Virus genome (UHGV): UHGV-0212524 | DNA from: a virus | Reading direction: 5' to 3' (one strand) | DNA length: 64,000 bases | Shown: positions 2,385 to 51,718 of the stretch, in pieces | Layout of the letters: each line of letters begins with the position of its first letter | How positions within the stretch are numbered: position 1 is the first letter of the stretch | The notes under the pieces: generated by a model | What the model was told of the DNA's origin: nothing | Database searches by the model: none | What the model saw: the letters and a program-made list of their open reading frames with translations, nothing else | Position numbers and translations under genes: made by a program

Positions 2385-5300
2385 ATGAGAAAACATTTTC
2401 AGCGTCACGCGATTAGCTACGCGTTATCGTTAGCTTACGGTCACCAATCCTTCGTTACCCGGAATACGGGAACGACTAACGACGCACATATCGATCATTA
2501 CATTCAAAACGAAGAAGGTGTTCTGTCGAATAACCGTCATTTCATCGCTGATACCATGGCGGAATACCAACCGAACGGTGACGCAACGACCGAGGGTCAG
2601 TCGTTACACATTATCGGTTATTGCCACATGTATATCGCAACAAAAGACGAAAGATGGTTAGATGCTGCGAAACACGCCTGGGATGCGTACAACACGTACT
2701 TCTACGCCGGACAGCCTATTCCGACAACACCCCAGCGTCGGATTTGTAACTGGTTAGTAAACGGGAAAGAACCGGTATTAGCACACTATCCTATTCACCC
2801 TACGGAACCTACCAACGGCGGGTATAAATGTGTTCCTGTAAGGTTTACAAATGGCCAATGTAAGATACCGCACGGTGCACCTTTCTGGGGAGAGTATTTG
2901 GATATCTGTACGTTTGCATATCGTGGCCACCCTGCCTGGGCCGCGATTAACGCAGATGTACAGATTATCAAGGAAGACAAAGAAGGGTCGATTAATTGGG
3001 AAGACGTTTTAACTCACGTTATTACTAATCCTGATAAGCCTTACGAAAGCACAGCTTGGGTCGATTGGCCAACACTGCTAAATAATACTACAGGTTACAC
3101 CCCGCTTTGGGGCGGCTCTGCAACAAAAGCTCCTAAACACGACGTTGACTGGATAATTGCCTGGACGGGTAACAAAATCCAGGATGGTGAAATTATTGAG
3201 ACGGGATTAGCAGACGCTGATAAAGGTACCGTACAGTTAAAAGACACACAGTTAAACGGTGTCTATTTAATTAACTACGCGGTAAAACTTCCTGTCGAAC
3301 ACGGCGGTTACGAATTTAAACGTAATGAGCCGTGGCACAACCGTCCGGTCCACACACCGTTCTTAGGGTCGAAAAACCAATACGGTAACGCCGCTGATGC
3401 TGAACTGTGGTTTATCGACGCCTGTTATTTGCTGTGGCGAATCACAGGTGAAGAGAAATACAAACAAGCATTAGACTGTGCTTTCTACACCGCACATGAG
3501 TACACGTATATTGATGCGACAGATAAATTCTTCCGTCGTTCTACCGCTGCGGATACACCGTTTACTGACGGTATTTCGTACGATTTCGATTACCCAGATA
3601 CCGTAAGTGCCACCTACGGCCGTGATGAGAATGGAGACATTACCATCCACGTGCCTGAAGCGGCGCAGCACTTTATGGAGCAAAAAGCGGTTAGGTTCAG
3701 GATTAACAAAGACTCTAAACTACGTGTCACGTACGGTGGAGTTTGTAAGAATGGCGATCCTGTCTACTGTAAAGTGATGGTGAACATTAACCCTGCGAAA
3801 GCTGATACCGAGGAGGTAAACTGGTACGGTTTAACCTTACCTCGGTCTACGGTAAATACCGTTAAACAGTACGATGTTGACTTAGGCCAACTTTCCCGTA
3901 TTACCACCCCAGAAGGGGGAGACTACCTGATAGCTGAAGCCCGTGCGTGTTCGGACTACGGTGGTTGTACGTGGGAAGAACGTTTTGAGGATAGCATTTA
4001 CGATGGTCGCGCGGGTACCGTGGTAGAAGCGGAATTTCCTGATGACAGTGCCGGGTTTATTATCGGGTTTTGGTTAACCGCTGAAGAGAAGGTAAAACCC
4101 GTTTCTATTGTTTACCGTGCAGACGCAGATTTTAACTTGCGTTTAGTCGACAGTGATAACTGGCTTTGGTGGTGGATGTTACCCAACACAAACAACGAAT
4201 GGCGTCAGGTAACGTTGAATCCGGATGAAGCCACACTTTCCGGTTATCAGCCAGACCACACAGACGCTGACCCTAAACCTTCAGCACCGAATTTCGATAA
4301 GGTGGATCAGGTCACGATTCTTCCTGACTCCACAGTTGACCATGCACACTTTGCTTACTATTGTGTTAACGATGTCCCACCGGTCTTTAATAAAGACGAT
4401 GGTTATATTTTAACCTTCCGTATTGCCTTACGCGGTGGTGCAGAGTTTGATGCAAAGGTGGGTGATTGTACGATTGTAGATTACCGATTGGATTCGTTAG
4501 CGTACTGTCCGGGTACGATACCGTTCACGAACAGCTACTTAGAAGGTTCAGAACAGTTAGGTGCTTGGCACGGGATGCCTTATCCAGGTTATCAGTATCC
4601 GTTTATGTACAGTATCCACAAAGACGACCGGTATAAGTTGTGGTTAGATAACCAGATTCAATTCCTGCACGATTCGCAGTTGGCTTACCAACAGCAAATT
4701 GGGGAATTAGGACCTGGTTGCGCAGCTTATATCTGGAACCGTTGGGACAACTACAGCTACGGAGAAGCGGATACCTGGACGACGTTCCATTGGGGTGATG
4801 ACCATCCTTGGGCAGGGTATCAGCCTCGCGCGTTTCATGCTGCGTGTCGGTGTTGGTACGAACTGAAACTGCGAGGTAAAGACGTTCCCGAGGCGTTAAC
4901 AACCTATATTGACAACTGGGTGAATTGGCTAGGTGGGTTTGTGGATCGGTTTAACGGCCACACTCCTAACGAGTTCCCTACAGCACCGGATAAAGCTGTT
5001 TGGGTGGAAAACGACTTCACCGCACATATGTGTGGGTTGTGGTTAGCAGGGTGTTGCTGGGCATTACTCGCCGGTGCAACGAATCCGAACTACGAAAAAG
5101 TGGTTAATGCGGCAATTAAGGAGTTAGGTGAAGGGTTTACGATTACCTCAATTCCGAATAAGCCGATTAATGGAGCGTGGTCTCCAGCCGCTCGAGAGTC
5201 TTCTGATAACGGAATGGCTTATGGGTTCTACACTGGAGAAGTGCTACGTGCGTTAGGTCTCTACGTTACTTATAAAACCTACGGACCCAACGCTAATATT

Positions 5301-5390
5301 TATCGTGACTTAGCGATTACTGACCACAGTCAAGCGGTCTTAGACGTTACGTTAACGATAGAAGATGTTCCATTAAAACCGGAGCAATAA
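2385..5390 (+). CDS. large virion protein, putative tail spike or receptor-binding protein (1001 aa)
   Basis: 1001-aa ORF directly after, and in frame with, the adaptor-like gene; Trp/Tyr-rich; no catalytic motif recognised. Confidence 0.5.
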   Translation: MRKHFQRHAISYALSLAYGHQSFVTRNTGTTNDAHIDHYIQNEEGVLSNNRHFIADTMAEYQPNGDATTEGQSLHIIGYCHMYIATKDERWLDAAKHAWDAYNTYFYAGQPIPTTPQRRICNWLVNGKEPVLAHYPIHPTEPTNGGYKCVPVRFTNGQCKIPHGAPFWGEYLDICTFAYRGHPAWAAINADVQIIKEDKEGSINWEDVLTHVITNPDKPYESTAWVDWPTLLNNTTGYTPLWGGSATKAPKHDVDWIIAWTGNKIQDGEIIETGLADADKGTVQLKDTQLNGVYLINYAVKLPVEHGGYEFKRNEPWHNRPVHTPFLGSKNQYGNAADAELWFIDACYLLWRITGEEKYKQALDCAFYTAHEYTYIDATDKFFRRSTAADTPFTDGISYDFDYPDTVSATYGRDENGDITIHVPEAAQHFMEQKAVRFRINKDSKLRVTYGGVCKNGDPVYCKVMVNINPAKADTEEVNWYGLTLPRSTVNTVKQYDVDLGQLSRITTPEGGDYLIAEARACSDYGGCTWEERFEDSIYDGRAGTVVEAEFPDDSAGFIIGFWLTAEEKVKPVSIVYRADADFNLRLVDSDNWLWWWMLPNTNNEWRQVTLNPDEATLSGYQPDHTDADPKPSAPNFDKVDQVTILPDSTVDHAHFAYYCVNDVPPVFNKDDGYILTFRIALRGGAEFDAKVGDCTIVDYRLDSLAYCPGTIPFTNSYLEGSEQLGAWHGMPYPGYQYPFMYSIHKDDRYKLWLDNQIQFLHDSQLAYQQQIGELGPGCAAYIWNRWDNYSYGEADTWTTFHWGDDHPWAGYQPRAFHAACRCWYELKLRGKDVPEALTTYIDNWVNWLGGFVDRFNGHTPNEFPTAPDKAVWVENDFTAHMCGLWLAGCCWALLAGATNPNYEKVVNAAIKELGEGFTITSIPNKPINGAWSPAARESSDNGMAYGFYTGEVLRALGLYVTYKTYGPNANIYRDLAITDHSQAVLDVTLTIEDVPLKPEQ

Positions 5391-15845: not shown

Positions 15846-15856
15846 TAAAAATAATT

Positions 15857-15897
15857 TCAGATATATATTACCTAGGTGAGAGTTCAGCTACTCTCAC
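15857..15897 (+). promoter_or_regulatory. conserved promoter-like motif plus hairpin (copy 2 of 4)
   Basis: tcagatatatattacctaggtgagagttcagctactctcac; the downstream leader is nearly identical to copy 4. Confidence 0.5.
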
Positions 15898-15927
15898 TTA
15901 ACTAAAACCATTTTAGGAGCATATACC

Positions 15928-16422
15928 ATGAACTTCACTAGACTTGATTACACTAACGAATTAGTTGACAAAGAAAAATACAAATTCACCGTTGACTTGG
16001 GTTACGGATTACTGGACGTAGAAAAAGATGTTCTGCACAAAGAATTCCGTGAGCAGTTCGGTGCTTTGTTCTGCGCAGGTTTCCGCAGAAACACTATTGA
16101 TATCGGTTACAGCGCAACAGCGTATACCGATGAAGAAATGTTTAAGCTGGTAACACAGATTATCGGAACGCGTGGAGCTAATCGTCTTAATTATTCCAAC
16201 GAACTTGTTTCGAAAGAGCATTACAAGTTCACCGTTAGACTACCTGCACACCTCACAGAAGAAGATAAGAACATCCTCTACAAAGCCCTCCAAACCGAAT
16301 TCGGTAAATCGCTCAAAGTAGGGTTCCGTAGTCGTAGTATCGATATCGGAATTAGTGTGGATGTGTGTAGTGACGATGACCTTTACGAATTAGTTTCGGA
16401 AGTTATCGGAAAACATCTCTAA
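15928..16422 (+). CDS. hypothetical protein with internal tandem duplication (164 aa)
   Basis: Two roughly 80-aa halves: LDYTNELVDKEKYKFTV...FRRNTIDIGYS... and LNYSNELVSKEHYKFTV...FRSRSIDIGIS... Confidence 0.6.
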   Translation: MNFTRLDYTNELVDKEKYKFTVDLGYGLLDVEKDVLHKEFREQFGALFCAGFRRNTIDIGYSATAYTDEEMFKLVTQIIGTRGANRLNYSNELVSKEHYKFTVRLPAHLTEEDKNILYKALQTEFGKSLKVGFRSRSIDIGISVDVCSDDDLYELVSEVIGKHL

Positions 16423-34400: not shown

Positions 34401-36671
34401 GAATTGTCCCATCTCGCCGGTTAGAGTTACACGTTCAAATTCTAACGTAGTGTTAGTAGACAAATCGGCCTTACGTAGACGCCAAGCTGCTACGGCGTAA
34501 GCGGAGTTATTTACCGTTGAACGGAGAAGATAAACGTAGTCCTCAACCAACACGACATCGTCAGCTTCCGGCCACGGGTTCCAGGTTTGTTCCACAGTAC
34601 CACTGGGGTTGCCGTTACGGTACACGGGCATCGTAACGCGACATACCACCGTGTGCTTAGTGTGGTCCATCGAGCCATTAAACAGCACCAAATAACGGTT
34701 ATTGTCAGAACCCAGGCAAATAATCGCTTCCTGGCCACCGATCAATATCGCTATTAGGGTCACCCCAGGATATTTACTCATCCCGGCAGGGTGATATTTC
34801 ACTGAGGTCTGCTGCGGATTTACAAACGCGTTTGACGTGTCAATGTCAGCATAGCCGTAATAAATAGCTTCCGTACCCGGCACGCCGTTAGAACCGTTAC
34901 GGAGCGAATAAACCTTACCCTGCTGATACCCAACAACCCCTTTCTGGTAGGACTGGTTTTTGGTATAGCCTGCGTAGTTACCTAACGCTGGGATAGGTAA
35001 GAAGTTCTTGTTACCGAATTTCGCTCCACCTACCGTCCACGCCGGTAAGATGGTATTCAGTTTATCAGAGACCTTCTTAATCTCTTTTGCGAACAACCAG
35101 CCTTGACGCGACGTGACAGCTTTATCGTTAGTGGTGTCAATTGCATCCCAGAGCTGTAAGATACCGTCAACCGTTGCACTACCAATCGGGACGTTATCCA
35201 AGTCAGCAGTGGTGTGGGTGTGCGTTTTCAAACTCTTGTTTTTCAACACGTTCGTTAACGCTTTTGTCACAGGCTTATCACTCGGTATGGTGTTATCCAT
35301 CTTATCGATACCGAAATCGGTTTTCGTTAAGGTTAACACCATATTGTCGCCTGTTTTAACAAACCCTTTACCGTTAACGGTATAGTCATCGTCAACGTAC
35401 AAGTCCAAGCGGTCTTTTAATTCTGTTACAGCTTTCTGGGAGATAGCAGTACCTAACGCCGCAGACGTAGAGATATTCGTAATCGAGAACAACCCATAAA
35501 CTGATTCGGACGCCGTGGGAATATTCGCGTTTAACGTAACCGGGTTAGTCTGTTTTGCGGTACCGTACGGTTTTACAGTGTCTGACGCTTTGAAATACGC
35601 GTTTGCTTCAAGCAACGTTACTGACGTCAGATACATGTTCACCATTTCTGGTGTAACCAGGTACACGGAGTTATAAACTGGCGCTAATACGTCCTGTTCC
35701 GACCCCGAGTGAACCCAAAGCGTATTCAGACCCGCACTGAATTCAACCGCTAAACCCGATTCGTTGTTGTCCTGGTCTGCTTTAATCACCAACGGTTGTG
35801 GCGAGGTAATTAACCACTTATCACCACGAATACTGATGATGTGGCCACCTGACGTTTTAAACGTTAATTCATTACCGTTCGTGGTACCCCATCGACCGTA
35901 AACGGTGCCGAGGGCTTCACCCATTAACTGGTCAACGTCCGATTGCTCAATACCCGCTGAACCCATCAGCGTAGCCAACTCGTCAATCGTCAACCCAAAC
36001 GCTTTTGTAGCGTCAACAGCACGACCTAATACCGGGAGAGCAGCAATGTCATCAGTGGTATAATGATGCGCGTTAGGGTTACGGTGATGCTGGTATAACT
36101 CTTCGTCGAAAACCTTTTTACCGTTCTCGTAAATCAAGTTAGTGACTTCACTGAACGCAGCATCTAATTCCGTAGAACGTTTGATGATTTTCTTGCGAAT
36201 GTCTTCTAACGCCTTAACAACCTCATCCCTCAGAATCGCTTCTTCTAAGTTAGCAGGCGGGTCGATAGGCTGAATAACCGGCGCATACGCCATTAGTTCA
36301 GACCAGTCCACGTTACGTGGGTCTTTCAGGTCAGTACGAACTAAGAACTTCCCGATTTCAGATTGCGGTACACGGTATTGACGTGCTACCCCTAAAATCT
36401 CATATTCGATTTCTGTTGCAGTAAGCAACATAAACCCGCCGTAAATCTGATCTTGTTCAGCTTCTGCGAGTTCTTTAAAGTAATAGCCTAAATAGTAGTC
36501 CAACCCCTCAATCAGAGTACGACGTCCGTTAGGCGCGGTATCGTCGGCTACTGTGAGTTTTAATCCGATACGATAAAAAGGTCCTTCAGGCGGAATGACC
36601 ACGTTAAATCGGTTAGGGTACGTCGCTGTGCTTAGCGTACCGTTAAACTGCGCCGCGTCTTCTCTCGGCAT
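31485..36671 (-). CDS. large tail fibre or tail spike protein (1728 aa)
   Basis: N-terminal anchor motif PPEGPFYRIGLKLTV...GLDYYLGY shared with neighbouring fibres; size and position in the structural block. Confidence 0.7.
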   Translation of the reverse strand: MPREDAAQFNGTLSTATYPNRFNVVIPPEGPFYRIGLKLTVADDTAPNGRRTLIEGLDYYLGYYFKELAEAEQDQIYGGFMLLTATEIEYEILGVARQYRVPQSEIGKFLVRTDLKDPRNVDWSELMAYAPVIQPIDPPANLEEAILRDEVVKALEDIRKKIIKRSTELDAAFSEVTNLIYENGKKVFDEELYQHHRNPNAHHYTTDDIAALPVLGRAVDATKAFGLTIDELATLMGSAGIEQSDVDQLMGEALGTVYGRWGTTNGNELTFKTSGGHIISIRGDKWLITSPQPLVIKADQDNNESGLAVEFSAGLNTLWVHSGSEQDVLAPVYNSVYLVTPEMVNMYLTSVTLLEANAYFKASDTVKPYGTAKQTNPVTLNANIPTASESVYGLFSITNISTSAALGTAISQKAVTELKDRLDLYVDDDYTVNGKGFVKTGDNMVLTLTKTDFGIDKMDNTIPSDKPVTKALTNVLKNKSLKTHTHTTADLDNVPIGSATVDGILQLWDAIDTTNDKAVTSRQGWLFAKEIKKVSDKLNTILPAWTVGGAKFGNKNFLPIPALGNYAGYTKNQSYQKGVVGYQQGKVYSLRNGSNGVPGTEAIYYGYADIDTSNAFVNPQQTSVKYHPAGMSKYPGVTLIAILIGGQEAIICLGSDNNRYLVLFNGSMDHTKHTVVCRVTMPVYRNGNPSGTVEQTWNPWPEADDVVLVEDYVYLLRSTVNNSAYAVAAWRLRKADLSTNTTLEFERVTLTGEMGQFGDNLCLRIGQKTEESQTGQFFTYLTPEGRAKWTIGRNFVHGPECNHACAVRDSVIRVNHMPTVWFAAADGTTINFLQWATSFTIDTLTGKVTLEGRERFPIKADATTTLSFADGSTVGTNRKWGGGQANNRCFATYAKPNGTGMMLSCWQIADADQMPNVSIKSTQGRELFDYLRYDNPNNTSGEGTFTWDKGRGSIYTIGLSYPVGIGGSNKVWLSNPRNRYTIEVEVDPNKPYDVSGYSGYGPNNNRREVDPTLYEQLSCMAACMIPEERHGQLNGWYLTKAETFPYRNIYGNFALSSERLTLEEADRQKMIRMIVDGAPSGQANGYANERISAAHQTGNALFALWMLGINTVCEFDLLQVSCMKTSSNGRRILDIYYFMVSPSKENGYLRFNSATFKLVDWFLDLDYGLSYQSLNGGAGGKTRRVGQPIFASADGTNFGIWLPYTLTTRNIGDLNALGYAAKYTFDPGSGWTRVAGKSQLRQMAPEHRPESGCYMGAGDWDKMALIYSKADRVFCSGNAYTAAEFVNDTTFSTGGQAVIIAGVETAEGWILYLTEEVKLDFGSSSYTLPTWSVDLSSEFPSNHANQTFYVHAEVSGSTAQYRIGLEQLADTSTRLFVGTVTTDSSRITGISIDKVKRLGRVKELEDHAAIIDQHDVAAAFDRKTGPLLTLVNKPVKAPTASASKGEGYVDGQKWGSLSGITTRPKLPIQETYSGYKSVARVAYENCADQFWQKAVAANIATATASENMQAASANMKWIGAYTKPTTGTNAYLALSLRVQVPGNPGTANRALKLRLAAPTGIVEARYALNQAGGTMTEQTVTLTANQYLEKEHSGFKPAEEVRVHVTFVIPKNEYESYRTKFGAVQLIDVESNTIVKQADIDTPFFVFTDTELAAQSGLVYKAVKGQFDNLPSEPTLIVRDGQTGTNPPVKSSYANGTLTVYVATAYDAVNPAETRDIDKLQFNLMFTS

Positions 36672-36765
36672 CGTAAAGACTCCTACTTTTAAATAAAATG
36701 GATACCCCTCCCCATTACAGGGAGGGGTTACCTACGGACACACAACTGCCCGCAGGCAGCCTGTC

Positions 36766-39700
36766 CTAAGTACGATCCCCTAACTGCTTCCCGTTAAGTT
36801 CACGTTTCAGTACAGAAAGTATCCATTTCCACGCTTTACTCGTGATATGGTACGGATTGCGTTTCTCCATTAAGAACTGCTTTTCACCGCTACGCAGTTC
36901 GAAGCTCTGCGCATTAAGCTGATCCTGACGAGTGCTTTGCTCATCAGTCACGTCTAACGAACAGGTAAAGTTAAGCTCGTAACCTTCGGGATTATCACCC
37001 GGCGGGTCTAAGACAATATAGATGTCCTGACCTACACGTAAGTCGGTGGCCGTGATACTAATCGCTTTACCTACGTCAGCACTGGTTGACAGAGCAAACT
37101 CTGCGCTATCAGTAGACGCTAAGAATGGGTCTTTCCCTGCGTCGCCGATAATCACCTTACCTGGCCAGTTACTTTTTATCGTTCCTGACACTTTTGCAAT
37201 TCGGTACTGTTGTTTATCGGCACCTTGTGCAAAACGGAGAATGAGTTTGTGACGATAACGACTTGCAGCAGCCTTAGTCGTACTCCACTCGTTGTTCCAG
37301 GAAGTATGCAGTTCGTTTTTCTTCGCCATCAGCGCACCGCGAGACAGCTTACGATCAAAGAACTGCGCAGGTAACTGCCCATCGTGAGAAACCGCAACGT
37401 TTCCCTGACCAGTTGGCAAGGCAATGCTCTCCGTGGCACGGTATTTTTGACTAATCTCATAAGTCGCAGGGTCAATCACAGACTGACTATAATCAGCGTC
37501 TTTGTTATCAGCCAAATACCCAACGGATGAATCCAAATACGACTCAAACAACGAACGTAAGTAATGATACTTATCAATGTCGATGTTGTTCGTAACCGGA
37601 TCAATCAGTGCGTGGCTAATTGTTACTCGGCATTTCGCGCTCAGTTCTTTAAACGACAACCCTATTCCGTCACCGGTGAAATAATCCACCAAGTCAAACG
37701 GGAATTGAATCTCCAATTGACGTTGTTTAACTGTCGTCGTCCCAAACTGCGAGAACGACAACGCTAAACGTAACACACGCGTACTTACGTTATAACGGTA
37801 ACGAATCATCCCACGAGGTGCATGGTTTGCAGAGATTTTATCTCGGGTGGCACCCCAGCCAATCAAATCGAGAATCGCGGGGTTGGTTTCTTCACCGTTG
37901 AACAACACGTCCTTAAACGTTGCATTCACCGCTGTTTCCCCAGACTCTTCCATTACCAACGGAATGTCAGTAACGTCTGAAACTGAACGGGAACCAATCC
38001 CCAACTTACACGCTTTGTCCGTCAGGTCAATACGTACATAACGACGTTTAACACTCGCCCCTTGCGTTGACGTACATAGCACCAAATCTGGTGCGGCAGT
38101 AAGTGCTTGTGTTCCACCGACGTCGTCAACATCGAATGCAAACGAACCTTCGAACGTCGGTGCGTTGTTTTCTTTCGGGTTAAACGGTGTAAACCAGCAA
38201 TACGGTGTAGCACCTTCAGGCATCACAACGTACTGAAGACTGGACTTCACGTTTTGGTTGTGTGCGTAAGTATAAAGACCGCGACTGACAAGATGGAAAA
38301 CATCACCTGTTCCGGCTGTTAACGCTTTCCTAAAGATACACGCTCTTGGTTCGGCAATAGCACGGTTTAATAACGGCAAACGTGGGTTATCCGTTAACGC
38401 CCAGTCCACAGAACTGAGTCCGTGTGCTTTACGCGTGTCGATGTGTTCACTAACCTCGGCACTTTTCCCGAAATCAAACGTGGTTTCGAACCCTACCGTT
38501 TTATTCGCGTAATTCTCACCAGCAACAATATCAACGTAACCGATATAACCACGTTCAGGATCAACTGCGATGCTCTGAATCGGTTCAGCACGCGAATACA
38601 GAGAGCCTGTGAGCATGTTAACGTACAGATAGTGACGAATCCCTACGTGCGTGGTAACAAACTCCTGGAGAAGCTCTACGCGCGTTTCAGGGCCACTGAA
38701 GTAAACAGGGTAATCCCCATCGTAAACTTCAAACTGTACCGCTGCGGACTTAGCCGTGTCACTACATTCAGCTTTAACCGCAATCGTGTAGTTTTCAACG
38801 TCTGCTGACGTTTCATACACTGCAACGAGTGGAGATTCGCCTGAAGCTGCTAGGTTACCGTTGATATAAACGGTTACCGGTCCGCCCCCTGCGGCATAAA
38901 CCCAGAGCTTCGATTGGTACGCCCTTACACGCGTTTTTGCCAGAACCGTAACGACTGACTGGTCACCCATCTGTGTAGCAGTTTTACCTACCGGGACAGA
39001 CTGGAACCCCATCAACGGCGGTTCTTCAATACCCGTCCAGTTGATTCCCGTACCGTTACTCACCTTACCCGTAGGCCAGGTCAGTTCAAGCTGGTTATTC
39101 GGTGAGAACCAGTTAAACATCGGGGTGGTTTGCAGGTCAATCGCACCAGTAACGGTGCTGTCGCCTTTCGTCCCGTCCAGCAAATAGAAATATTTCAAAT
39201 CCTGAACGGAGATTGACGTACCCTGGCTATTAAAGCGCCAGTCTGCACCTTTCACAGCAGCAAAATCAGTTACCGTGCCTTCTTTCGCGTTTGCAATTGC
39301 AGCAGCCACCACATCTAAACGGGCTGAAAGCTCTTTTAAGATGTTCGGTACCACCGCACGGTTTTCAACTAAGCCGTTCTGGTTAGTTGCGTAACGACCG
39401 ATGCCGTAAATCGACTGCGAGGCTTTATAAATGCCTAACTCTGACCAGTCGTGATGGTGTCCGACGTCTGCTAAACCACTAACCGAAGCATTCAGTGCGG
39501 TTGACAACGGTTTGTCGAGGTCTGCGGTGTTATCCGCTTGCCCTAATCCCAGGTCAGCTTTTGTGATTGTCCTGGAACCGTCGTTCATCGGTTTACCGTT
39601 AATCATGGTCGTTTTAGTCACGTACCCTGATAAGTCGGTTGAATACGGCGTTAATGACGCAGGGGTTGCAGCAACCCCAACCGTTTCTGTGCCTTTACCG

Positions 39701-40950
39701 GTTTTAAGTTTAACAACACCTTTTTCAGCGGTGGTCGCTTTCGTCGGGTCGATAGTCCCCACGATAGGATCGGCACGAGAACCTTTACCGGTAAAACTAA
39801 TCCCGTTACGGCCTTCGATATACACTTTGGAGTCATCAGGATCGCTACCGCCACTCCCGCCAGCATCAGGGTCTTGCTGATACTCCATCAGCGCTGTGGT
39901 GGTCAACAACGGGTTACCGTTCAGAGTGAGTTTGTTCATCCCTAAAGCGTCACCGGTTGACTCGATACGTAAGGTGTTTTTACCCGCACGCCAGTTAATG
40001 TAACGTCCCGCACCTGTGCCTTCCAGATGCCCTACCGCCAATACCACAGAACCGTTGGATTTTAACGTAAAGCCATCATTCGCAAAAATGATTTCGGACT
40101 CACCATTTTTCGAACGGAACTGTGCGCGGTTTCCAGACACCGTACAGTTAAACACGCCCCGTACTTCCGAAGAAATCCAGTGGGAGATATACGTGTCAAT
40201 AACTGACTGTGGTAAACGAAACGCTTTCAGTTCTTCCGTTAACGCTTTTAATTTTAACCCGTACGCCATAAAGGTGTCAGGTGTTTTCAGGTTAACGGGA
40301 TGGGCATTAATTTGTGCGCTCGTGGTTTCGTGCGGGTTCGTCGCGGCGATATGTGCTGGGTAGTTAAACGCTTCGATTTCTTTCCCCAACGCAGCCACTA
40401 GCGCTTTAACTTCGGCTAATTTATCTTTAATTAGCTGGTTAGCATCATCGGTTTTCAGCTCGATATCGTGAATCGCTGACGCTAAATATTTTTTGTTCAG
40501 CAAGTCCGCCCAGGACGTTGCCGCTGGCGTAGCCGGGTATAACGACGGTCTACCGTCTAACAACAGCCAGTCTGCACTGACCGGGTTATTCAAATATTTC
40601 ACCAGCTCGTCGAGCATGTCAACGAACGGGTCGTAGAACGTACCGCCGAGCATTTGCCCTTCAAAGGTTACAATGCCTTTGATGGATGGGTTGATAAGGT
40701 GTACCCCACAATACACGTTGGCTGCTACCGAGTCATCCAGTTCCGTCAGCTGATATTGCAGTTCGTAATCCACCCCACGGCTCAGTGGGGTGGTTGAACC
40801 TGGTTGTCTGACGACTAAGTCTTCAAAGAACGGGCGATGGTCTAAAATCACCACCCGGTCGTTGTTGTTTTCTGACCCGATGATACGCTCCTCTAAGAAG
40901 TGATTCTCGGTTTTCGTCCCCCGAGGATCGTAAGGATACGCTTTCATCAA
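36766..40950 (-). CDS. large tail fibre or tail spike protein (1394 aa)
   Basis: N-terminal HRPFFEDLVV...GVDYELQY anchor motif. Confidence 0.7.
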   Translation of the reverse strand: MMKAYPYDPRGTKTENHFLEERIIGSENNNDRVVILDHRPFFEDLVVRQPGSTTPLSRGVDYELQYQLTELDDSVAANVYCGVHLINPSIKGIVTFEGQMLGGTFYDPFVDMLDELVKYLNNPVSADWLLLDGRPSLYPATPAATSWADLLNKKYLASAIHDIELKTDDANQLIKDKLAEVKALVAALGKEIEAFNYPAHIAATNPHETTSAQINAHPVNLKTPDTFMAYGLKLKALTEELKAFRLPQSVIDTYISHWISSEVRGVFNCTVSGNRAQFRSKNGESEIIFANDGFTLKSNGSVVLAVGHLEGTGAGRYINWRAGKNTLRIESTGDALGMNKLTLNGNPLLTTTALMEYQQDPDAGGSGGSDPDDSKVYIEGRNGISFTGKGSRADPIVGTIDPTKATTAEKGVVKLKTGKGTETVGVAATPASLTPYSTDLSGYVTKTTMINGKPMNDGSRTITKADLGLGQADNTADLDKPLSTALNASVSGLADVGHHHDWSELGIYKASQSIYGIGRYATNQNGLVENRAVVPNILKELSARLDVVAAAIANAKEGTVTDFAAVKGADWRFNSQGTSISVQDLKYFYLLDGTKGDSTVTGAIDLQTTPMFNWFSPNNQLELTWPTGKVSNGTGINWTGIEEPPLMGFQSVPVGKTATQMGDQSVVTVLAKTRVRAYQSKLWVYAAGGGPVTVYINGNLAASGESPLVAVYETSADVENYTIAVKAECSDTAKSAAVQFEVYDGDYPVYFSGPETRVELLQEFVTTHVGIRHYLYVNMLTGSLYSRAEPIQSIAVDPERGYIGYVDIVAGENYANKTVGFETTFDFGKSAEVSEHIDTRKAHGLSSVDWALTDNPRLPLLNRAIAEPRACIFRKALTAGTGDVFHLVSRGLYTYAHNQNVKSSLQYVVMPEGATPYCWFTPFNPKENNAPTFEGSFAFDVDDVGGTQALTAAPDLVLCTSTQGASVKRRYVRIDLTDKACKLGIGSRSVSDVTDIPLVMEESGETAVNATFKDVLFNGEETNPAILDLIGWGATRDKISANHAPRGMIRYRYNVSTRVLRLALSFSQFGTTTVKQRQLEIQFPFDLVDYFTGDGIGLSFKELSAKCRVTISHALIDPVTNNIDIDKYHYLRSLFESYLDSSVGYLADNKDADYSQSVIDPATYEISQKYRATESIALPTGQGNVAVSHDGQLPAQFFDRKLSRGALMAKKNELHTSWNNEWSTTKAAASRYRHKLILRFAQGADKQQYRIAKVSGTIKSNWPGKVIIGDAGKDPFLASTDSAEFALSTSADVGKAISITATDLRVGQDIYIVLDPPGDNPEGYELNFTCSLDVTDEQSTRQDQLNAQSFELRSGEKQFLMEKRNPYHITSKAWKWILSVLKRELNGKQLGDRT

Positions 40951-40960
40951 AAAATTCTCC

Positions 40961-43900
40961 TTAATCGCGAATGATTACCGCCTGCACTTTATTGTTGGTG
41001 TCGATAAACGACATTACGCGCTCCTTGTTAAGATAAGGAGGTATCGGTAACGCAGCGTAATCCGCCAGGCTGTTATTAAACTCGGTTGCCACTAGCGCAT
41101 TAAGCGTTTCAGGGTCTGAGCTTGTCCCGGCCAATTCCATGACGCGTACACGATTTAACGAGGAGTAGTTGCTGATATAATCCAACAGCGTACCGTAGAG
41201 TTTGTTCCCGGTTATGCTGTCTGTCGTAGAACGGATATTAGCACGCACTTCGTCCTCATAAAGTCCCCCTAAACCGTAGTAAATAGGGGTGTACGGATCG
41301 TTAACGATAGGCGCGAGGTTGAACCCAGTTAAACGGTCGGTCAGCGAGATTTTCTGCGTAGTACCACCTGCCGCCGTACAGCTTACGTATTTATCTGCCG
41401 CAGACAAATACACCACAATAGTGTAAACAGTACCTGCTAAGGTCAGCGTTGCGTTAAACGTTAATTCGTTATTCGCACCACGCGTGTGGGTAAATGATAC
41501 GTCAGGATGTAACGTACTCCACGGTGCTGGGGTAACGCGTTTGGTCGGCGTGAAACCTAACACCACGGATTTCCCGTTACCGAAGTTTAAACCAAACCCG
41601 GCGTAACAATACTCACCGTTACTGTCGGTTAAACGATAACCACGGGTGATAAGTAACGACAACCGCATAAACTCGTCTTCGGTATTTTTCCAGCAAGCCA
41701 GGATGGTTTCTAGCACCGTTCCGGTTTTTGCGTTGCTTTCGGTTTCCCAACTGACTCGCATCCCCGCATTGTTAAATACCGGGAACAGGTTGTGGATAAA
41801 CCCGTGAACGTTATCACTTACCCCTTTTGCATCAAACACCCACTTCGACGCAAGCTGGTCGTATTTCACACCATCGAGTGCTTTATATCCACCGCCAACC
41901 ACATAACGCCAGTCTGCTTCGCCACGCACAACCGCTTGAAGTCCAGAAGCCCAGCAGGGCGCACCTACTGTTAAATTGCTTAACCCCAGCACTGCACGTG
42001 AAGCAGAACGCTGAATGTGTGCGTTATCATTGGCGACGTGGTCTTTCAGCTCACGGAAATCGCCTAACCGTGTCACGTTACGTAGTTCAGTAACGAACAC
42101 TTCAGAAAGGTCGTTAATACCGATTAGACCCACGCGCGTCATGGTATCCGTTTCAGCCTGACTGTAGCTGTCGTGAATAATGTACTTCGCTTTGTTATCG
42201 ACAATGTCAACAAAAATCCCTGCGTAAATTTCCTTATTCAGATTCGGGAAACGTTCAGTGACGTTAACCGACATCAACGGCACGTCGTACGTTTCGCCGC
42301 CAACGAAATACGTGGAAGCAGGAAGTGTCACTAGGATTTTGTCTTTAACCGTAACGTCAATTAGGTCGTTACCGGACTTACCAAAGCGAATAATGTCAAC
42401 GCGCGCACCCGAGTCAACCCCGCCGACGGTATTCTCCAAATCTTCAATCTGGGAAGTCTGCGCCATCACCACACTACCGTCGAGCGCTAAAGTGGCATCA
42501 TCCACTTCCAGACCGAATTTAATCAGGCCCCGTTTCGTGGTGTCTGCGTTCGCAACACCGAATACGGAAGACGGGTGTTGGTGAACCTTCGGTGAGTATT
42601 TGTCCAGCTCGGTCTGCTGTGCAACAGAAATCGGTAAGTCAACGTCCGGGGTATTCGCAACGTTACCTAAACCAAAGGTAATTTTGTCGATAGTAACCGA
42701 ACTGGTAAGCTGCATGTCGTTGATGTACGACTTGGCGGCAACTAACTTACCGGTAAACTCTGCGTCCAGTTTTTCAATTAACGCAGGGGTTGCTGCGAGG
42801 TTTTCAGCCGTACCGAATTCGTCCGTTAACTGCCAACACGCTAACGTAGTAACGTCTTCGGCAACCGGAAGAATAAACGTTGCGACAAACGGCGACGCTT
42901 TAATCCCGCTACCCGTAAGTTCCACTGTAGCTGTAGTTGCACCGTAGAATAATCCCGTACCGCCTGCGGTATTGCCCGGCAAATACGGCGCTACCGTAGT
43001 GGGGTCTAAGAGTTTCTTACCGCGCCACAGTAATCCACGGTCATCAGGATATAGCACAAGCTGGTTATCTCCCGCTTGCAACGTTACCGGGTTGTTACCC
43101 ACGTTAACGTCAGTAGAACCTTGACCGATGAACTTAATGGATTTCGGATCAACGACAAACTGAGCACCTAAACGTCTCTCGTCAACAACGCCAGGTGCTT
43201 TCTTAATGGTAACCGTGTTACCTTTGTTTTGCGAACTAATATTGACGCCGTCAGCAACATTATTGATCAGCGATTTAAAGTGGTGCTGATTCTCTAATGC
43301 TTCTAACGCAGCGTCCATGTTATTGAAGTTAATCCGACCGCTATACGTTTTACTGTTTACGGTAATAACGACGTCAAACACATTCCCTGTACGCTTCAGT
43401 TGAAAACGTAGCGTAAAATCCCCATCCGGTATTGCCGGATTAGGAGCTTGCGAAATATACCGAACTGCCGGTACAGGACTACCGTAACCGTGCAACGCCA
43501 GTTCGATAGTAAGAGTACCGGACCAGACTTCACCGGTAATCTCTACGTACTTACCGGAGTTACTACCGGGATTTTCGTAGAAACGAAAACCAACCCTACC
43601 GACCGCTTCATTACCAGACGCTGTTTTACGTCCGGTAACAATAAAGTCAATATCTTGCAGGTTGGCAGGTACCGCATTAAAGTTAGCACTGAAACCGCTT
43701 TTCGTTCCTGTATAACGAAGCGCACCGTGATATCTGTGGCCACTACTAACATAGCTTTCACTAAAATAAGGACTCACGTACTTCGACATCGACACTGGGT
43801 CGACTTCAGTAGTAAATGACGTAAAGCCGGGGAGCGTTGTAATCGTGCCGTTAACGTTCTTGCTCGCTGATTCACGAAGCAGTTTTTTCTGGGCGGTTAA

Positions 43901-45283
43901 CGTTGCCTGCGTTGGGTACTTAGCGTTTACGTAATCGGTTAATTGCTCCTTAGTTTTCCCGTAGGCTAATGCTGCGTCGGATGCAATGCCGTTTAATTCT
44001 AACGCACGAATCGGACCCCAGGTGTCAGCGTGTGGGTTATCCTTACGGGTGACGTGTTCGTGCGCAGGCGCGTTGCGATAGAGCTGTTCTACTAACTGAT
44101 GGTACTTAACGATTAACTGATAAACGTCGTTACTTACGTCTGCTTCTGGCGCACCAGGTAACGCAAGGAATTGAGCATAATCGTTCTCAGCCGCCCACCA
44201 GTTTAAGTTAACGTTGGTTTTGTACTTCAGCCACTTCGCAACATCCGTTTTGGTGTAACCTGCTGAGAATTCGTCTGGCGGTGTGTCAACGTTAAAGGTG
44301 TAGTCCATGGACTGTTTGTTAGTCGTCACCTCGATAACGTATACACCGTTACCCGGTTGACGAACAACGCTAAACGTTAATTCGCCTTTTAATTCATCGT
44401 CGGTCAAACCGTTGATTAACGTATAATCATAATCGGTCGAACCACTGCCTAACGCAACTGTCAGTCGTAGGCTGATTTTACGTTGTTTTAATTGGAGACG
44501 AAGGATACTTGCGCCACCGTTCGCGTAGCACAACATCCAATCGATTTGTTCGTTCGGATTAATACTCCCCATATTCGGAAAAATAGCCGGAATACGGTAT
44601 TTCATCGACAGGGAATATTCATTTAACGTGGTGGTTTTGTACGTAACGGAGAAACGGCGTTTAGCGGTATTGTAAGTATACCCACCTTTGTTGTCGTACG
44701 TTGCGTACTGTTCAGACGTGATAACCGTACCATTAGCACGATGCTCGATATCTAACGTGTTACGTGCAATCGGGTCTACCCGATTCACCACGTTACCTAA
44801 CGAATCACCTAAGCCTGCAATGGCCTGCATTAATTCCAGTTCACCTTTCCAGTTTTCCCAGTCGAACTGAATATCGACCGGTGGAAAGTAAACTTCGCCG
44901 ATAACGGTATCCCATTGACACGCAGACGGGTATTTATCTTTATTGAGTTCGCGTTCTGCGGTAATCTGTTCTTGGGTCGCTTCACCACAACCTACGGCGT
45001 GGTAATCTACCGTGAAATTCGATTTGTATTTGTCATTAACAATCCAAATCATCCCGTGCACGAGATAGGCTGTGCGCAACATACCGGTCTCGTACGGGTG
45101 TGTAATAACGTAATCGTCGCCTAAGGTCAGTATTTTGCCGCCGCTCTTGACCACCAGGGATGTGGTGAAAAAAGGGGCGTGGGCAGGTACCAACATTCGG
45201 TACTTCGTACCAATGACGGCGACCGCTTCACCGGTTATTTTATTCCCCGGTTCTTTGAAGTGTGGGTCTAGGACGACAGCCAT
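40961..45283 (-). CDS. large tail fibre or tail spike protein (1440 aa)
   Basis: N-terminal HAPFFTTSLVV...GDDYVITHPY anchor motif. Confidence 0.7.
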   Translation of the reverse strand: MAVVLDPHFKEPGNKITGEAVAVIGTKYRMLVPAHAPFFTTSLVVKSGGKILTLGDDYVITHPYETGMLRTAYLVHGMIWIVNDKYKSNFTVDYHAVGCGEATQEQITAERELNKDKYPSACQWDTVIGEVYFPPVDIQFDWENWKGELELMQAIAGLGDSLGNVVNRVDPIARNTLDIEHRANGTVITSEQYATYDNKGGYTYNTAKRRFSVTYKTTTLNEYSLSMKYRIPAIFPNMGSINPNEQIDWMLCYANGGASILRLQLKQRKISLRLTVALGSGSTDYDYTLINGLTDDELKGELTFSVVRQPGNGVYVIEVTTNKQSMDYTFNVDTPPDEFSAGYTKTDVAKWLKYKTNVNLNWWAAENDYAQFLALPGAPEADVSNDVYQLIVKYHQLVEQLYRNAPAHEHVTRKDNPHADTWGPIRALELNGIASDAALAYGKTKEQLTDYVNAKYPTQATLTAQKKLLRESASKNVNGTITTLPGFTSFTTEVDPVSMSKYVSPYFSESYVSSGHRYHGALRYTGTKSGFSANFNAVPANLQDIDFIVTGRKTASGNEAVGRVGFRFYENPGSNSGKYVEITGEVWSGTLTIELALHGYGSPVPAVRYISQAPNPAIPDGDFTLRFQLKRTGNVFDVVITVNSKTYSGRINFNNMDAALEALENQHHFKSLINNVADGVNISSQNKGNTVTIKKAPGVVDERRLGAQFVVDPKSIKFIGQGSTDVNVGNNPVTLQAGDNQLVLYPDDRGLLWRGKKLLDPTTVAPYLPGNTAGGTGLFYGATTATVELTGSGIKASPFVATFILPVAEDVTTLACWQLTDEFGTAENLAATPALIEKLDAEFTGKLVAAKSYINDMQLTSSVTIDKITFGLGNVANTPDVDLPISVAQQTELDKYSPKVHQHPSSVFGVANADTTKRGLIKFGLEVDDATLALDGSVVMAQTSQIEDLENTVGGVDSGARVDIIRFGKSGNDLIDVTVKDKILVTLPASTYFVGGETYDVPLMSVNVTERFPNLNKEIYAGIFVDIVDNKAKYIIHDSYSQAETDTMTRVGLIGINDLSEVFVTELRNVTRLGDFRELKDHVANDNAHIQRSASRAVLGLSNLTVGAPCWASGLQAVVRGEADWRYVVGGGYKALDGVKYDQLASKWVFDAKGVSDNVHGFIHNLFPVFNNAGMRVSWETESNAKTGTVLETILACWKNTEDEFMRLSLLITRGYRLTDSNGEYCYAGFGLNFGNGKSVVLGFTPTKRVTPAPWSTLHPDVSFTHTRGANNELTFNATLTLAGTVYTIVVYLSAADKYVSCTAAGGTTQKISLTDRLTGFNLAPIVNDPYTPIYYGLGGLYEDEVRANIRSTTDSITGNKLYGTLLDYISNYSSLNRVRVMELAGTSSDPETLNALVATEFNNSLADYAALPIPPYLNKERVMSFIDTNNKVQAVIIRD

Positions 45284-45350
45284 TATCTACTCCTATAGTC
45301 CGTGGGCGTCGAGTTCATACTATGACTTGAATCTATTGAGGAAAAGAGCT

Positions 45351-46613
45351 GTGACTACTGCTTATCAAGTGCGGCCTGACAGCGCTTTTGGCTTCTCTCG
45401 AGAGACCCGTACCTGGGGAGCCATCGACGTCACGCAACCCTTAGAAACCTTGTGTTCTGATTACCATATTTTCGAAGTCGGTCTGAGTGCGCTTGGTAAA
45501 GACTATACGTTAATTAGCCAATATCACCTCGCTGACTTACAAAACCGTACCGATACGTTACAAGACTGGCTGAATGAAAAAGCCGGTGTGGTTATCTCTG
45601 CGTTGAAAGACGGTTTACCGACGTTAGAGTTTGATTGGGCACACTACCAATCGATTAATGCCGATGTTCCAGTAGAAACCTACCTGTGTCCTCCCGGTTA
45701 CCATTACAGTCAAGATTTCAGTATAGACGATGCTGACGACGTTGTGATTGTTTGCGAAGATAAATGGAAAGACAAATACCGTAACGGGGTGTTGTACAAC
45801 ATCAACGGTCAATGGGTACCACATCAGTCGGATACAGTTGGTGTACGTTTACCGGGCGCGGGTAAGATAGTACGTCGTGCAGGGACACCGGATATCGGCT
45901 GCATGGTCTTTAGTAAATTGGGGAATGTTAAAACGTACCCCATTGCTAACTTGACCCTAAACAAACTCGACACCACCCGTGACTATTATTCCACGTTAAT
46001 GATTTCTTTACCGGAATCTATTACGGGTAAAACCGTGGGGTTTGTTATCGGGGGTCTGATACACTGGTTACCGGTTACTGGGTACTTCTCCGACAAAGCC
46101 ATTATGGTCTCGTTACCGAACTTTGACGTTGCGCGTACTGTGTTAGAAACCCGACGTTATTACGACTGGGATAGCATCGGTGTTGGCGATCTGTCATCCC
46201 CGACCAGCGTACAGCGTATCCGCAACCCAGAAACATTAAAGGCGCTTTTAACCCACGAGTCGTCGTTTATCTTTACGGTGGATAATCCGTATCTGGAAGA
46301 AGAAGTTGTGGGGGTTTCTCACAACGCTATCTGGGGACGTTTATACCTTAAAGATCCTAATGACCCTGATGGGGAAAAACAGCTGGGCTATCTGTTAAAC
46401 CGCTTCGGTAAAACCGTTGCTTATTGGCCGACGTGGGAAGAAGGGGAATGGGTATTTAACACCACGGAATTCGACAGTCAAAACTACGTGTTCCGTGAGG
46501 CCCGTTGGTATAACCAGAAGAAAATTAACGATGCACAGGCAATCGTAGGACCTTTCGGTCCCTGGGAAAAAGTCTATTTGGAAATGCATCGTTTCCGTGC
46601 AAGAAAAAAATAA
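45351..46613 (+). CDS. hypothetical protein (about 420 aa; start uncertain)
   Basis: Track ORF begins at 45135 but that would overlap the divergent fibre gene start; the in-frame GTG at 45351 has the RBS gaggaaaag upstream. Confidence 0.45.
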   Translation: MTTAYQVRPDSAFGFSRETRTWGAIDVTQPLETLCSDYHIFEVGLSALGKDYTLISQYHLADLQNRTDTLQDWLNEKAGVVISALKDGLPTLEFDWAHYQSINADVPVETYLCPPGYHYSQDFSIDDADDVVIVCEDKWKDKYRNGVLYNINGQWVPHQSDTVGVRLPGAGKIVRRAGTPDIGCMVFSKLGNVKTYPIANLTLNKLDTTRDYYSTLMISLPESITGKTVGFVIGGLIHWLPVTGYFSDKAIMVSLPNFDVARTVLETRRYYDWDSIGVGDLSSPTSVQRIRNPETLKALLTHESSFIFTVDNPYLEEEVVGVSHNAIWGRLYLKDPNDPDGEKQLGYLLNRFGKTVAYWPTWEEGEWVFNTTEFDSQNYVFREARWYNQKKINDAQAIVGPFGPWEKVYLEMHRFRARKK

Positions 46614-46618
46614 GTAAC

Positions 46619-46657
46619 CTCCTACCCTCTAAGAGGGTAGGAGTAGCACGTTTTTTT
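46619..46657. terminator. putative terminator between convergent genes
   Basis: cctcctaccctc taaga gggtaggag, then a T7 run. Confidence 0.5.
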
Positions 46658-46660
46658 CAC

Positions 46661-46870
46661 TTAGTCTTTTTTGTAGACAATCGCGTTACCGTGCAGTTTG
46701 TTGTTACCGGAAATACCGATAACTTTAAACGCTTCACCGCCGATCTTTTCAGCTTCGACAGCCAGCTTAGCAGTAACGTCGTCTACGGTATCACCGAAAG
46801 CGCTTACGTTACCAATTTTCTTGAACTCTTCAGGAATGTGTTCAGCAGAAGAGAATTCTTTAATAGCCAT
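46661..46870 (-). CDS. DUF1471 (YdgH/BhsA/McbA-like) domain protein lacking a signal peptide (69 aa)
   Basis: KIGNVSAFGDTVDDVTAKLAVEAEKIGGEAFKVIGISGNNKLHGNAIVYK closely resembles the enterobacterial BhsA-type domain (recalled: ...GTISA...L..KA.E.GA..FRI.S..G.N.LHGTA.IYK) but has no N-terminal signal sequence. Confidence 0.6.
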   Translation of the reverse strand: MAIKEFSSAEHIPEEFKKIGNVSAFGDTVDDVTAKLAVEAEKIGGEAFKVIGISGNNKLHGNAIVYKKD

Positions 46871-47069
46871 AGCTACTCTCCAGTTAAAGAAAGGAAGGAC
46901 TGTATCGTGTTACAACCAAAGCATAAGATAGCTCCTCCCCGAAGGGAGGAGTGAGTGCGCGAAAAAAGTGGCCTGCTTAACTAAACGATGAGGTTTAAGA
47001 AAAGTGTTGATAAGAAGCTTACCAACGTCAGGTCACAATATATAATACCAGCGTAAGAAAAAGGGGAAA

Positions 47070-48035
47070 TCAGCGTGGGCCTGAAGTTGGGCCATGGACG
47101 CCGTCGTGGATGTGTACGCTGAAGGTAATACCGGAAATCACCGCATCCTTAACCGTAAAGATACCCACGCCTTCGCCCGTACCACCGTATTTGAAGTTCT
47201 TAGCAACTTCCAAATTACCGGTGAACATCGCTTCGTTACCTTCTTGCTTAAAGTTCGGCGTTTTATACGTTGTTGAACCAGAAGCTTCAGTTAGCCAGGT
47301 TTCTGTTTTAAAGGTAACCGATTTCGACGCTTCGGTATTCCGAACTTCGCATTTCTCATTAATCGTTTTCGTTTCCAGGTTAATCGAACGTTTTGCGTAA
47401 ATGAACGCATCTTCTTTGTTGATGTTCACTTTCGAGAGCATCGCGTTCTCAAAACCTAAATCGTCTTCCACCGAGTTAATGTAATACTTATTCCCTTTAT
47501 GGTCAACGCACTGCCACGACCCGTTAGCGTTATCGAATTGGAATAACCACGCCGCTTTCTCCCCATTCACCATACTTGTTCTTAGGGTAACGTGTTTGTC
47601 AATCGTTGAGACGTTTAACACATACGCGTTCGACAAGTCATCCGCCATCTGGTTTTCCGGGTCAGCCGACCACGCGTAAACCGCATCCTCTAATCGCTTA
47701 ACGTTAGCGAAATTCAAATCAATCCAAAAATAAATATCAGTTTGCCCTAGACGTAGCAAGATAACGTAATCTTCTCGCTTAACGTCTGGGGAATTAATTC
47801 GGTTGGAATTAAATTTCCACCACTTTGCAGTAATCGTGTTACCGGTTTTAATCGTTAGGTTGTCGATAGCACCCCCAGTATCGTGTACCTTTTCAGCGGT
47901 TGAGGAAACTGATTGTACAACGGTAGGGTTCGCAAAGTTGGTTTCAATTGGTATCACTTTTACCCGATCTGTACCACGGGGTTTGTCTTCCGCGACGATA
48001 CCAATCGAGAAAAAGTCAACGCTGGATTTCTCCAT
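47070..48035 (-). CDS. hypothetical protein, possibly virion structural (321 aa)
   Basis: Intact ORF; beta-rich composition; C-terminal GITFSVHIHDGVHGPTSGP; no confident family assignment. Confidence 0.5.
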   Translation of the reverse strand: MEKSSVDFFSIGIVAEDKPRGTDRVKVIPIETNFANPTVVQSVSSTAEKVHDTGGAIDNLTIKTGNTITAKWWKFNSNRINSPDVKREDYVILLRLGQTDIYFWIDLNFANVKRLEDAVYAWSADPENQMADDLSNAYVLNVSTIDKHVTLRTSMVNGEKAAWLFQFDNANGSWQCVDHKGNKYYINSVEDDLGFENAMLSKVNINKEDAFIYAKRSINLETKTINEKCEVRNTEASKSVTFKTETWLTEASGSTTYKTPNFKQEGNEAMFTGNLEVAKNFKYGGTGEGVGIFTVKDAVISGITFSVHIHDGVHGPTSGPR

Positions 48036-51626: not shown

Positions 51627-51647
51627 TCTCTAACATTAAAAATAATC

Positions 51648-51688
51648 TCAGATATATATTACTTAGGTGAGAGTACAAAAGCTCTCAC
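51648..51688 (+). promoter_or_regulatory. conserved promoter-like motif plus hairpin (copy 4 of 4)
   Basis: tcagatatatattacttaggtgagagtacaaaagctctcac; the downstream leader cttaactaaaaccattttaggag is shared with copy 2. Confidence 0.5.
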
Positions 51689-51718
51689 TTAACTAAAACC
51701 ATTTTAGGAGTATTAACG

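Follow-up and report, generated by a model that had tools for sequence, protein, structure and literature searches.

In the Enterobacterales, the DUF1471 proteins, among them BhsA, McbA, YhcN, SrfN and YdgH, are abundant and are associated with stress and biofilms. Most members of the family carry a Sec signal peptide and are periplasmic (PMC4092069), and for one of them, the host protein YdgH, function requires periplasmic localisation (PMC11705850). The fold, as described by Eletsky et al. 2014, consists of a short N-terminal strand, a second strand, a long helix lying on the sheet, and a third and a fourth strand. The closest described phage protein is gp172 of Salmonella phage SPN3US (SPN3US_0172 / YP_009153466), which is recorded as a 'DUF1471 domain-containing protein', and some GenBank/RefSeq records already annotate the phage gene as a DUF1471 or BhsA protein. 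In the literature that we searched, however, we found no paper that ties DUF1471 or BhsA to jumbo phages, and the phage family as a whole is a signal-less DUF1471 variant that is undiscussed in that literature.

We analysed a window of 64,000 nucleotides of viral DNA, in which the gene of interest occupies positions 46661..46870 on the minus strand, with its ATG at 46870..46868 and its TAA at 46663..46661. The product, MAIKEFSSAEHIPEEFKKIGNVSAFGDTVDDVTAKLAVEAEKIGGEAFKVIGISGNNKLHGNAIVYKKD, is a 69-aa signal-less DUF1471 (BhsA-like) protein, the ortholog of SPN3US gp172 and a member of PHROG 8068. Reading of the sequence places a Shine-Dalgarno motif, GGAGAG, 5 nt before the ATG (46876..46881, minus strand), and aligned upstream regions of relatives have GGAG or TGGAG at the equivalent position. 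An in-frame TAA is present 13 codons 5' of the ATG (46910..46912, minus strand); the 13 in-frame codons between the two, HDTVLPFFNWRVA, include no ATG, GTG or TTG, and further in-frame stops lie beyond. With a stop at this distance and no intervening start, an N-terminal extension is ruled out. The preliminary description had seen no extension before a stop in the upstream frame, which is correct, and the search for alternative starts that it recommended yields none that restores a signal peptide. Its concern that the start might be mis-set can be laid to rest in view of the upstream stop, the position of GGAGAG and the use of the same start in all orthologs examined.

The start is equally stable across the family, as the orthologs are 66-82 aa long and the N-termini of the phage homologs, which read M(S/A)IKE-, MKEF- or MQQF-, begin at a position common to all 28. 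This uniformity bears on the possibility that the missing signal peptide is an annotation artefact or the mark of a decaying remnant, that is, that the true start lies upstream together with a signal peptide, or that the ORF is a fragment left by the pseudogenisation of a host gene once captured. We found nothing in favour of this explanation, which is excluded by the sequence and to which we assign practically no probability: in addition to the upstream stops and the constant length and start, two terminator-like hairpins separate the gene from its upstream neighbour, the gene is under strong purifying selection, and peptides of the ortholog, SPN3US gp172, have been detected by mass spectrometry. 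The ORF is a genuine gene and not a chance ORF, as judged from its full-length match to PHROG 8068 and from dN/dS.

Profile searches place the protein within DUF1471. Against Pfam PF07338 (YdgH_BhsA-like) it scores 40.3 bits (E=3.4e-10, with residues 17-67 aligned to profile positions 2-55 of 55), above the gathering score of 27 bits, as do the orthologs SPN3US gp172 (43.5 bits) and CR5_163 (51.1 bits). The best of five NCBIfam models for DUF1471 is BhsA (NF047859) at 47.4 bits, and the aligned model positions, 30-85 of 85, correspond to the mature part; because this score falls below the 90-bit equivalog cut-off of the model, the window protein is BhsA-like rather than BhsA. A sequence search of the PDB gave matches to YahO (2ma4/2noc). 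The AlphaFold2 model, computed from 65 homologs, has a pLDDT of 85.7 and the order b1-b2-helix-b3-b4 (strands at residues 4-6, 16-26, 47-54 and 59-68, helix at 29-42), and its best Foldseek matches in the PDB are the solved DUF1471 domains YdgH-I, YdgH-III, SrfN and YahO. The topology predicted by this model is that of the DUF1471 fold of Eletsky et al. 2014.

What distinguishes the protein from its bacterial relatives is its N-terminus. The maximum 9-residue Kyte-Doolittle hydropathy within its first 30 residues is 0.52, and this maximum ranges from 0.09 to 1.96 in 28/28 phage-type homologs as compared with 2.11 to 3.0 in 37/37 bacterial homologs, every one of which has a typical MK...AxA signal. 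The 69-aa phage protein is in effect mature BhsA preceded by a methionine, with no Sec signal peptide, and since the export signal has been lost, the protein is made inside the infected cell. The profile score relative to the gathering score, the predicted fold and the low hydropathy all sustain the original proposal of a BhsA/YdgH-like domain encoded without a signal peptide, including the HMM search against DUF1471 that had been suggested as a check, and the 37 bacterial homologs agree with its statement that the relatives normally carry one.

Over about 10% of a 24-kb query, the window DNA shares only about 74-76% identity with Salmonella phage SPN3US and with the Erwinia phages phiEaH2 and Asesino, to which it is related, and on account of this limited similarity it does not belong to a described phage; judged from its sequence, it represents a new SPN3US-like jumbo phage. 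The DUF1471, baseplate and gp171-like proteins of the window are identical to those encoded by L014, an IMG/VR contig of 224.8 kb. The match to PHROG 8068 (E=1.1e-31) extends over residues 1-69 and profile positions 1-70 of 70. Using tblastn, the gene was found in 60 phage records, all of them jumbo phages of 197-251 kb with Salmonella, Erwinia, Escherichia, Cronobacter or Proteus as hosts, and IMG/VR contributed 16 additional loci, all on contigs of 107-248 kb. The order of a baseplate gene followed by the DUF1471 gene, then a convergent gp171-like gene and then a fibre gene is retained in 28/28 loci examined, which represent five named genera (Seoulvirus, Erskinevirus, Machinavirus, Wellingtonvirus and Derbicusvirus) together with uncultivated contigs, and across these loci the divergence of the DUF1471 protein follows that of the neighbouring proteins. 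The gene is under purifying selection, with dN/dS of 0.03-0.19 between the window gene and its closer orthologs. It is a vertically inherited core gene of the SPN3US-like clade, belonging to a family that is already catalogued clade-wide as PHROG 8068 and of which the window gene is a new member.

A single-sequence homology search returned only 4 proteins, owing to its word filter, and a profile search was needed to recover the family. Among 5.8 billion proteins, the profile gave phage-type matches at 96-130 bits, then a gap, and then bacterial BhsA-type matches at 45-71 bits from Yersinia, Serratia, Leclercia, Kluyvera, Pantoea and others, all of the named ones being Enterobacterales. An exhaustive HMMER search of 1.84 billion representatives gave 178 proteins at E<=0.001, only four of which are phage-type (109-120 bits, matching from residue 1); the next-best proteins score at most 71 bits and align from about residue 27-31, after the signal peptide. 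Short bacterial matches in this search, considered as further signal-less DUF1471 proteins, turned out to be fragments or to have mis-set starts.

In a neighbour-joining tree the phage copies fall into one clade, with a bootstrap of only 39/100 on 55 columns, so that a single capture is likely but not proven. The phylogeny with host homologs that the preliminary description called for thus upholds monophyly of the phage clade but gives it little statistical weight, whereas the host origin that it suspected agrees with our finding that enterobacterial BhsA proteins are its closest cellular relatives and that the cultured phage relatives all infect Enterobacterales. The probable history is a single capture of a host bhsA-like gene by the clade's ancestor, with vertical inheritance from then on.

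Additional DUF1471 copies and records were encountered in the course of these searches. A second copy in the window was considered and rejected, as tblastn gave only a weak match of 47 aa (3984-4124, plus strand; 34% identity, E=0.03) inside a 1001-aa ORF at 2385..5390, which is probably due to chance. In Wellingtonvirus, a second signal-less DUF1471 gene directly follows the first, at L005:4287-4847 (Erwinia phage Wellington gp189) and at L010:4305-4871 (pEa_SNUABM_11). In this second copy the DUF1471 domain is N-terminal; it scores 29.7 bits in Pfam, where the gathering score is 27, matches the window model with a Foldseek TM of 0.88, and is followed by an acidic low-complexity tail of about 120 aa. 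The first copy also ends in an acidic C-terminal tail, which is short. An NCBI record named 'TPA: DUF1471 domain-containing protein [Salmonella enterica]' (P0003, from a 23-kb contig) is phage-type, signal-less and 75% identical to the window protein, and most likely represents a jumbo-phage contig within a bacterial assembly.

The surroundings of the gene suggest a small transcription unit of its own, for which the terminators are supported and the promoter is putative. Between the convergent DUF1471 and gp171-like genes lies a bidirectional intrinsic terminator with an 11-bp stem flanked by an A-run and a T-run (46619..46643); its folding z-score is -5.4, 0/200 shuffles are equally stable, and it is identical in L013, the closest metagenome relative. 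On the other side, a GC-rich hairpin, CTCCTCCC-TTCG-GGGAGGAG, with a UUCG loop (46932..46951, minus strand) is likely the terminator of the upstream baseplate gene, and a second terminator-like hairpin is located 3' of that gene (47006..47026, minus strand). Directly downstream of the first hairpin, six bases past it, is the sequence TATGC, whose TATG (46922..46925, minus strand) has its G 52 nt before the ATG and constitutes a putative promoter and start site for a phage RNA polymerase. TATG is invariant in 10/10 aligned upstream regions, a region otherwise only 44% identical, and is also found in L013. The late promoters of the phiKZ nvRNAP are TATG, with transcription beginning from the G, and the middle promoters have in addition AAanTTACc near -24 (PMC4666361). 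In SPN3US-type phages an (A/T)TTTAC element occurs at about a -24-like distance, between the upstream hairpin and TATG; that stretch is missing in the window and its nearest relatives, and the window shows no enrichment of TTAC-N15-18-TATG, with 11 occurrences versus 10.65 expected. From the invariance of TATG and its resemblance to the phiKZ promoter we infer, by analogy, that the DUF1471 gene has its own phage-polymerase promoter.

Several other non-coding features were observed. The stretch at 46926-47069 (minus strand), which separates the baseplate gene from TATG, is conserved relative to L013:4610-4803 to a degree no lower than the DUF1471 coding sequence, and contains the motifs GCCACTTTTTTC and TAT(T/A)(A/G)TGTGAC, which recur across genera; it has no Rfam match and a folding z-score of only -1.9, and an Rfam search of 46400-47300 gave nothing near gathering scores. 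The 1440-aa fibre gene (minus strand, start 45283) and the gp171-like gene (plus strand, start 45351) are divergent, and between them, at 45316-45326, is a palindrome, TCATAcTATGA, in which both strands carry a TATG, some 27-36 nt ahead of the respective start codon; it could be a bidirectional phage-polymerase promoter. Near-identical stretches at about 15853-15927 and 51644-51718, with the sequence AAT(T/C)TCAGATATATATTAC(C/T)TAGGTGAGAG...CTCTCACTTAACTAAAACCATTTTAGGAG, precede the genes starting at 15928 and 51719, and the genes starting at 13748, 18900, 54420 and 61692 have in common a GC hairpin followed by TTTACCTAAAGGAG(C/A)ATTAA. These upstream sequences look like repeated regulatory cassettes.

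The gene is embedded among tail genes. Its upstream neighbour (47070..48035, minus strand) encodes a baseplate assembly/spike-like protein of 321 aa, the ortholog of SPN3US gp173 (PHROG 3216, tail), and its convergent neighbour (45351..46613, plus strand, GTG start) encodes a gp171-like protein of 420 aa, the ortholog of SPN3US gp171 (PHROG 3337), which in SPN3US is an essential tail-associated protein (PMC5105663). Pfam searches with three neighbouring proteins gave no matches at E<=0.01, and the 'Mu gp45 spike' annotation in the record of pSal-SNUABM-04 was not reproduced for the baseplate protein of the window. Three consecutive giant ORFs of 1728, 1394 and 1440 aa, located at 31485-45283 on the minus strand, are positional counterparts of SPN3US gp168-170, which are baseplate/tail-fibre candidates of 'paralog family C' (PMC5694885). 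Identity to the counterparts in the closest contigs is 88-95% for the 1440-aa protein, which is lower than the 91-100% of the adjacent gp171-like protein.

Proteomic data on the ortholog, SPN3US gp172, bear on whether the protein belongs to the virion. Ali et al. 2017 detected gp172 in virions from a single CsCl gradient (6 PSM, 81% coverage) at an SC/M of 0.86, near the 0.93 of the 12-copy portal and the 1.0-1.4 of the fibre candidates; it was named the smallest virion protein and was missing from 47(am1) particles, and the authors wanted its status resolved (PMC5694885). Reilly et al. 2020 labelled it 'Tail', with the remark 'Unusually high abundance in cell' (PMC7411985 Table S2). These reports, together with the location of the gene between tail genes in 28/28 loci, speak for a genuine structural component of the tail or baseplate, stable and of low copy number, for which a signal peptide would not be needed because virions assemble in the cytoplasm. 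The spectral counts in the second study point the other way: gp172 gave 6 PSM in the WT sample, 3 in the single-gradient sample and 2 in the sample containing only heads, the highest count, 13, came from the crude differential-centrifugation sample, and there were 0 in dual-gradient tailed phage and in four tail-containing gradient samples, including tail-containing proheads, even though gp171 and gp173 are present in both (PMC7411985). In a later and deeper study of 2023, carried out in triplicate with a more sensitive instrument and a 1-cm gel, gp172 is not among the 102 phage proteins of dual-gradient virions, although the list, whose smallest protein is 10.5 kDa, includes gp171, gp173 and even non-virion proteins with only 2-3 spectra (PMC10052503). 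A stable structural role is disfavoured by these later proteomes, and the original authors had themselves regarded the status of gp172 as unsettled, so we judge such a role very improbable.

Read most simply, these data describe a protein, gp172, that reaches very high levels in infected cells and is attached to particles loosely if at all; the low PSM counts (0-13) could be noise. The remark on its abundance in the cell probably goes back to Weintraub et al. 2019 (J Virol 93:e01833-18). We found no further virion proteomes of the SPN3US-like clade in the literature searched.

We tentatively propose, with somewhat less than even confidence, that the window protein, abundant in the cytoplasm, is an accessory to the baseplate/tail-fibre module with only loose binding to tails, as opposed to an exported stress protein or a stable structural one. 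This assembly-accessory role is put forward just as tentatively, its basis being confined to gene position, abundance and loose co-purification, with data that come from SPN3US gp172. In such a scheme, the signal-less DUF1471 protein would stay in the cytoplasm, which is the site of virion assembly, would accumulate to high levels through transcription from the putative phage-polymerase (TATG-type) promoter, and would serve as a soluble accessory to the adjoining baseplate/tail-fibre module; it would be overproduced, its binding to tails would be loose or transient, and it would be mostly shed from mature virions. Loss of the signal is to be expected if the protein must act where virions assemble, and the combination of high abundance, weak tail association in gentle preparations and loss on stringent purification fits a morphogenetic accessory made in excess. 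Moreover, because YdgH works only in the periplasm, a signal-less copy is unlikely to do the host job during infection. The suggestion in the preliminary description that a host-derived domain has been repurposed in the cytoplasm is plausible in this light, gp172 being unusually abundant in cells and absent from dual-gradient virions, yet first reported as a virion protein. Against the accessory reading, synteny in the structural modules of jumbo phages is conserved whatever the function of a gene, and we know of no precedent for a host-derived envelope-protein domain acting as an assembly factor.

Several of the same observations can be accommodated if the protein is a moron-like auxiliary host mimic that is unrelated to virion assembly, an abundant signal-less BhsA domain that acts on host biology, which we consider possible but rather unlikely. 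In one version, it would act in the cytoplasm as a decoy for, or a binder of, a partner of DUF1471 proteins or of their precursors; in another, it would act only after lysis, being set free together with the progeny and binding an enterobacterial envelope or glycan component, with effects such as changed aggregation or the masking of debris. Bounded by a terminator on each side and preceded by a promoter-like motif, the gene appears to be an autonomous unit inserted between structural genes, and the abundance of gp172 in cells and its absence from clean virions suit a role of this type, as does the expansion of the family in Wellingtonvirus, where the second signal-less copy has a long acidic tail. 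The protein is also BhsA-derived, with both the DUF1471 family (PMC4092069) and the hosts of all cultured relatives belonging to the Enterobacterales, and another DUF1471 protein, SrfN, binds sulfated polysaccharides (PMC4092069). However, DUF1471 proteins have no known partner, an extracellular role exercised purely after lysis would not in itself demand the loss of the signal peptide, and the weak 'Tail' association in single-gradient preparations would be left unexplained.

A further scenario, which we regard as quite unlikely, is that the virulent phage makes in bulk, in the cytoplasm, a 'pre-matured' host periplasmic stress domain that reaches the envelope without Sec, either through release at lysis or loosely bound to tails, and there binds the BhsA-type DUF1471 ligand to the benefit of the progeny. 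If this were true, the phage protein would offer a soluble, abundant and export-free handle on the DUF1471 ligand, a question that dates back to the sequencing of the E. coli genome. Apart from any particular role, purifying selection has maintained a signal-less copy in at least five genera, with an ortholog reported as abundant in cells, which indicates that the periplasm is not the only place where the domain can be of use. SPN3US is a tractable system in which to find a DUF1471 binding partner because amber-mutant genetics and published proteomes exist for it. As regards annotation, the name 'multiple stress resistance protein BhsA', used in some records, should be avoided for the phage gene, and its product should not be entered among confirmed virion proteins. 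The finding is a modest one, as the family had been catalogued already and no new mechanism is revealed.

With BhsA/YcfR (ComC) and the other single-domain DUF1471 proteins of Enterobacterales, the window protein shares the domain over its full length, corresponding approximately to mature BhsA plus Met, and its local identity to BhsA of Yersinia, Serratia, Kluyvera and Pantoea is 40-57%; it differs from them in being phage-encoded and in having no Sec signal peptide, which all of the bacterial proteins compared (37/37) possess, and the phage-type proteins form a separate clade about 40 bits from any cellular protein. SPN3US gp172 is likewise 69 aa long, signal-less and syntenic, but only 43% identical. 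The predicted model superimposes on the solved DUF1471 domains YdgH/SssB-I (2m2j), YdgH-III (4evu), SrfN (2jna, 2ma8) and YahO (2noc, 2ma4) with TM scores of 0.61-0.74 (query-normalised) at a sequence identity of 18-21%, and the solved domains are all periplasmic or secreted. RcsF, the archaeal Se-binding protein (SeBP), YbjQ/UPF0145 and DUF74, which rank directly below the DUF1471 structures in Foldseek and have the same alpha+beta topology, are fold relatives of DUF1471 in Eletsky et al. 2014 as well. None of these four shows sequence similarity to the window protein, which also lacks the RcsF cysteines.

Two comparisons concern role and gene organisation rather than fold. T4 gp57A is an example of the small non-virion factors that assist tail-fibre or baseplate assembly in myoviruses, and by analogy, drawn from general knowledge, it too is small, made in quantity, encoded in a tail-gene region and not a stable virion component; the window protein has no homology to it, and a chaperone activity is an analogy only. 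Phage morons are autonomous promoter-gene-terminator units that lie between structural genes. The DUF1471 gene resembles them in being flanked by terminators, in having a promoter-like motif of its own and in its host origin, but differs in that it resides in a virulent jumbo phage, is core to its clade and not of sporadic occurrence, and would depend on a phage RNA polymerase for its transcription.
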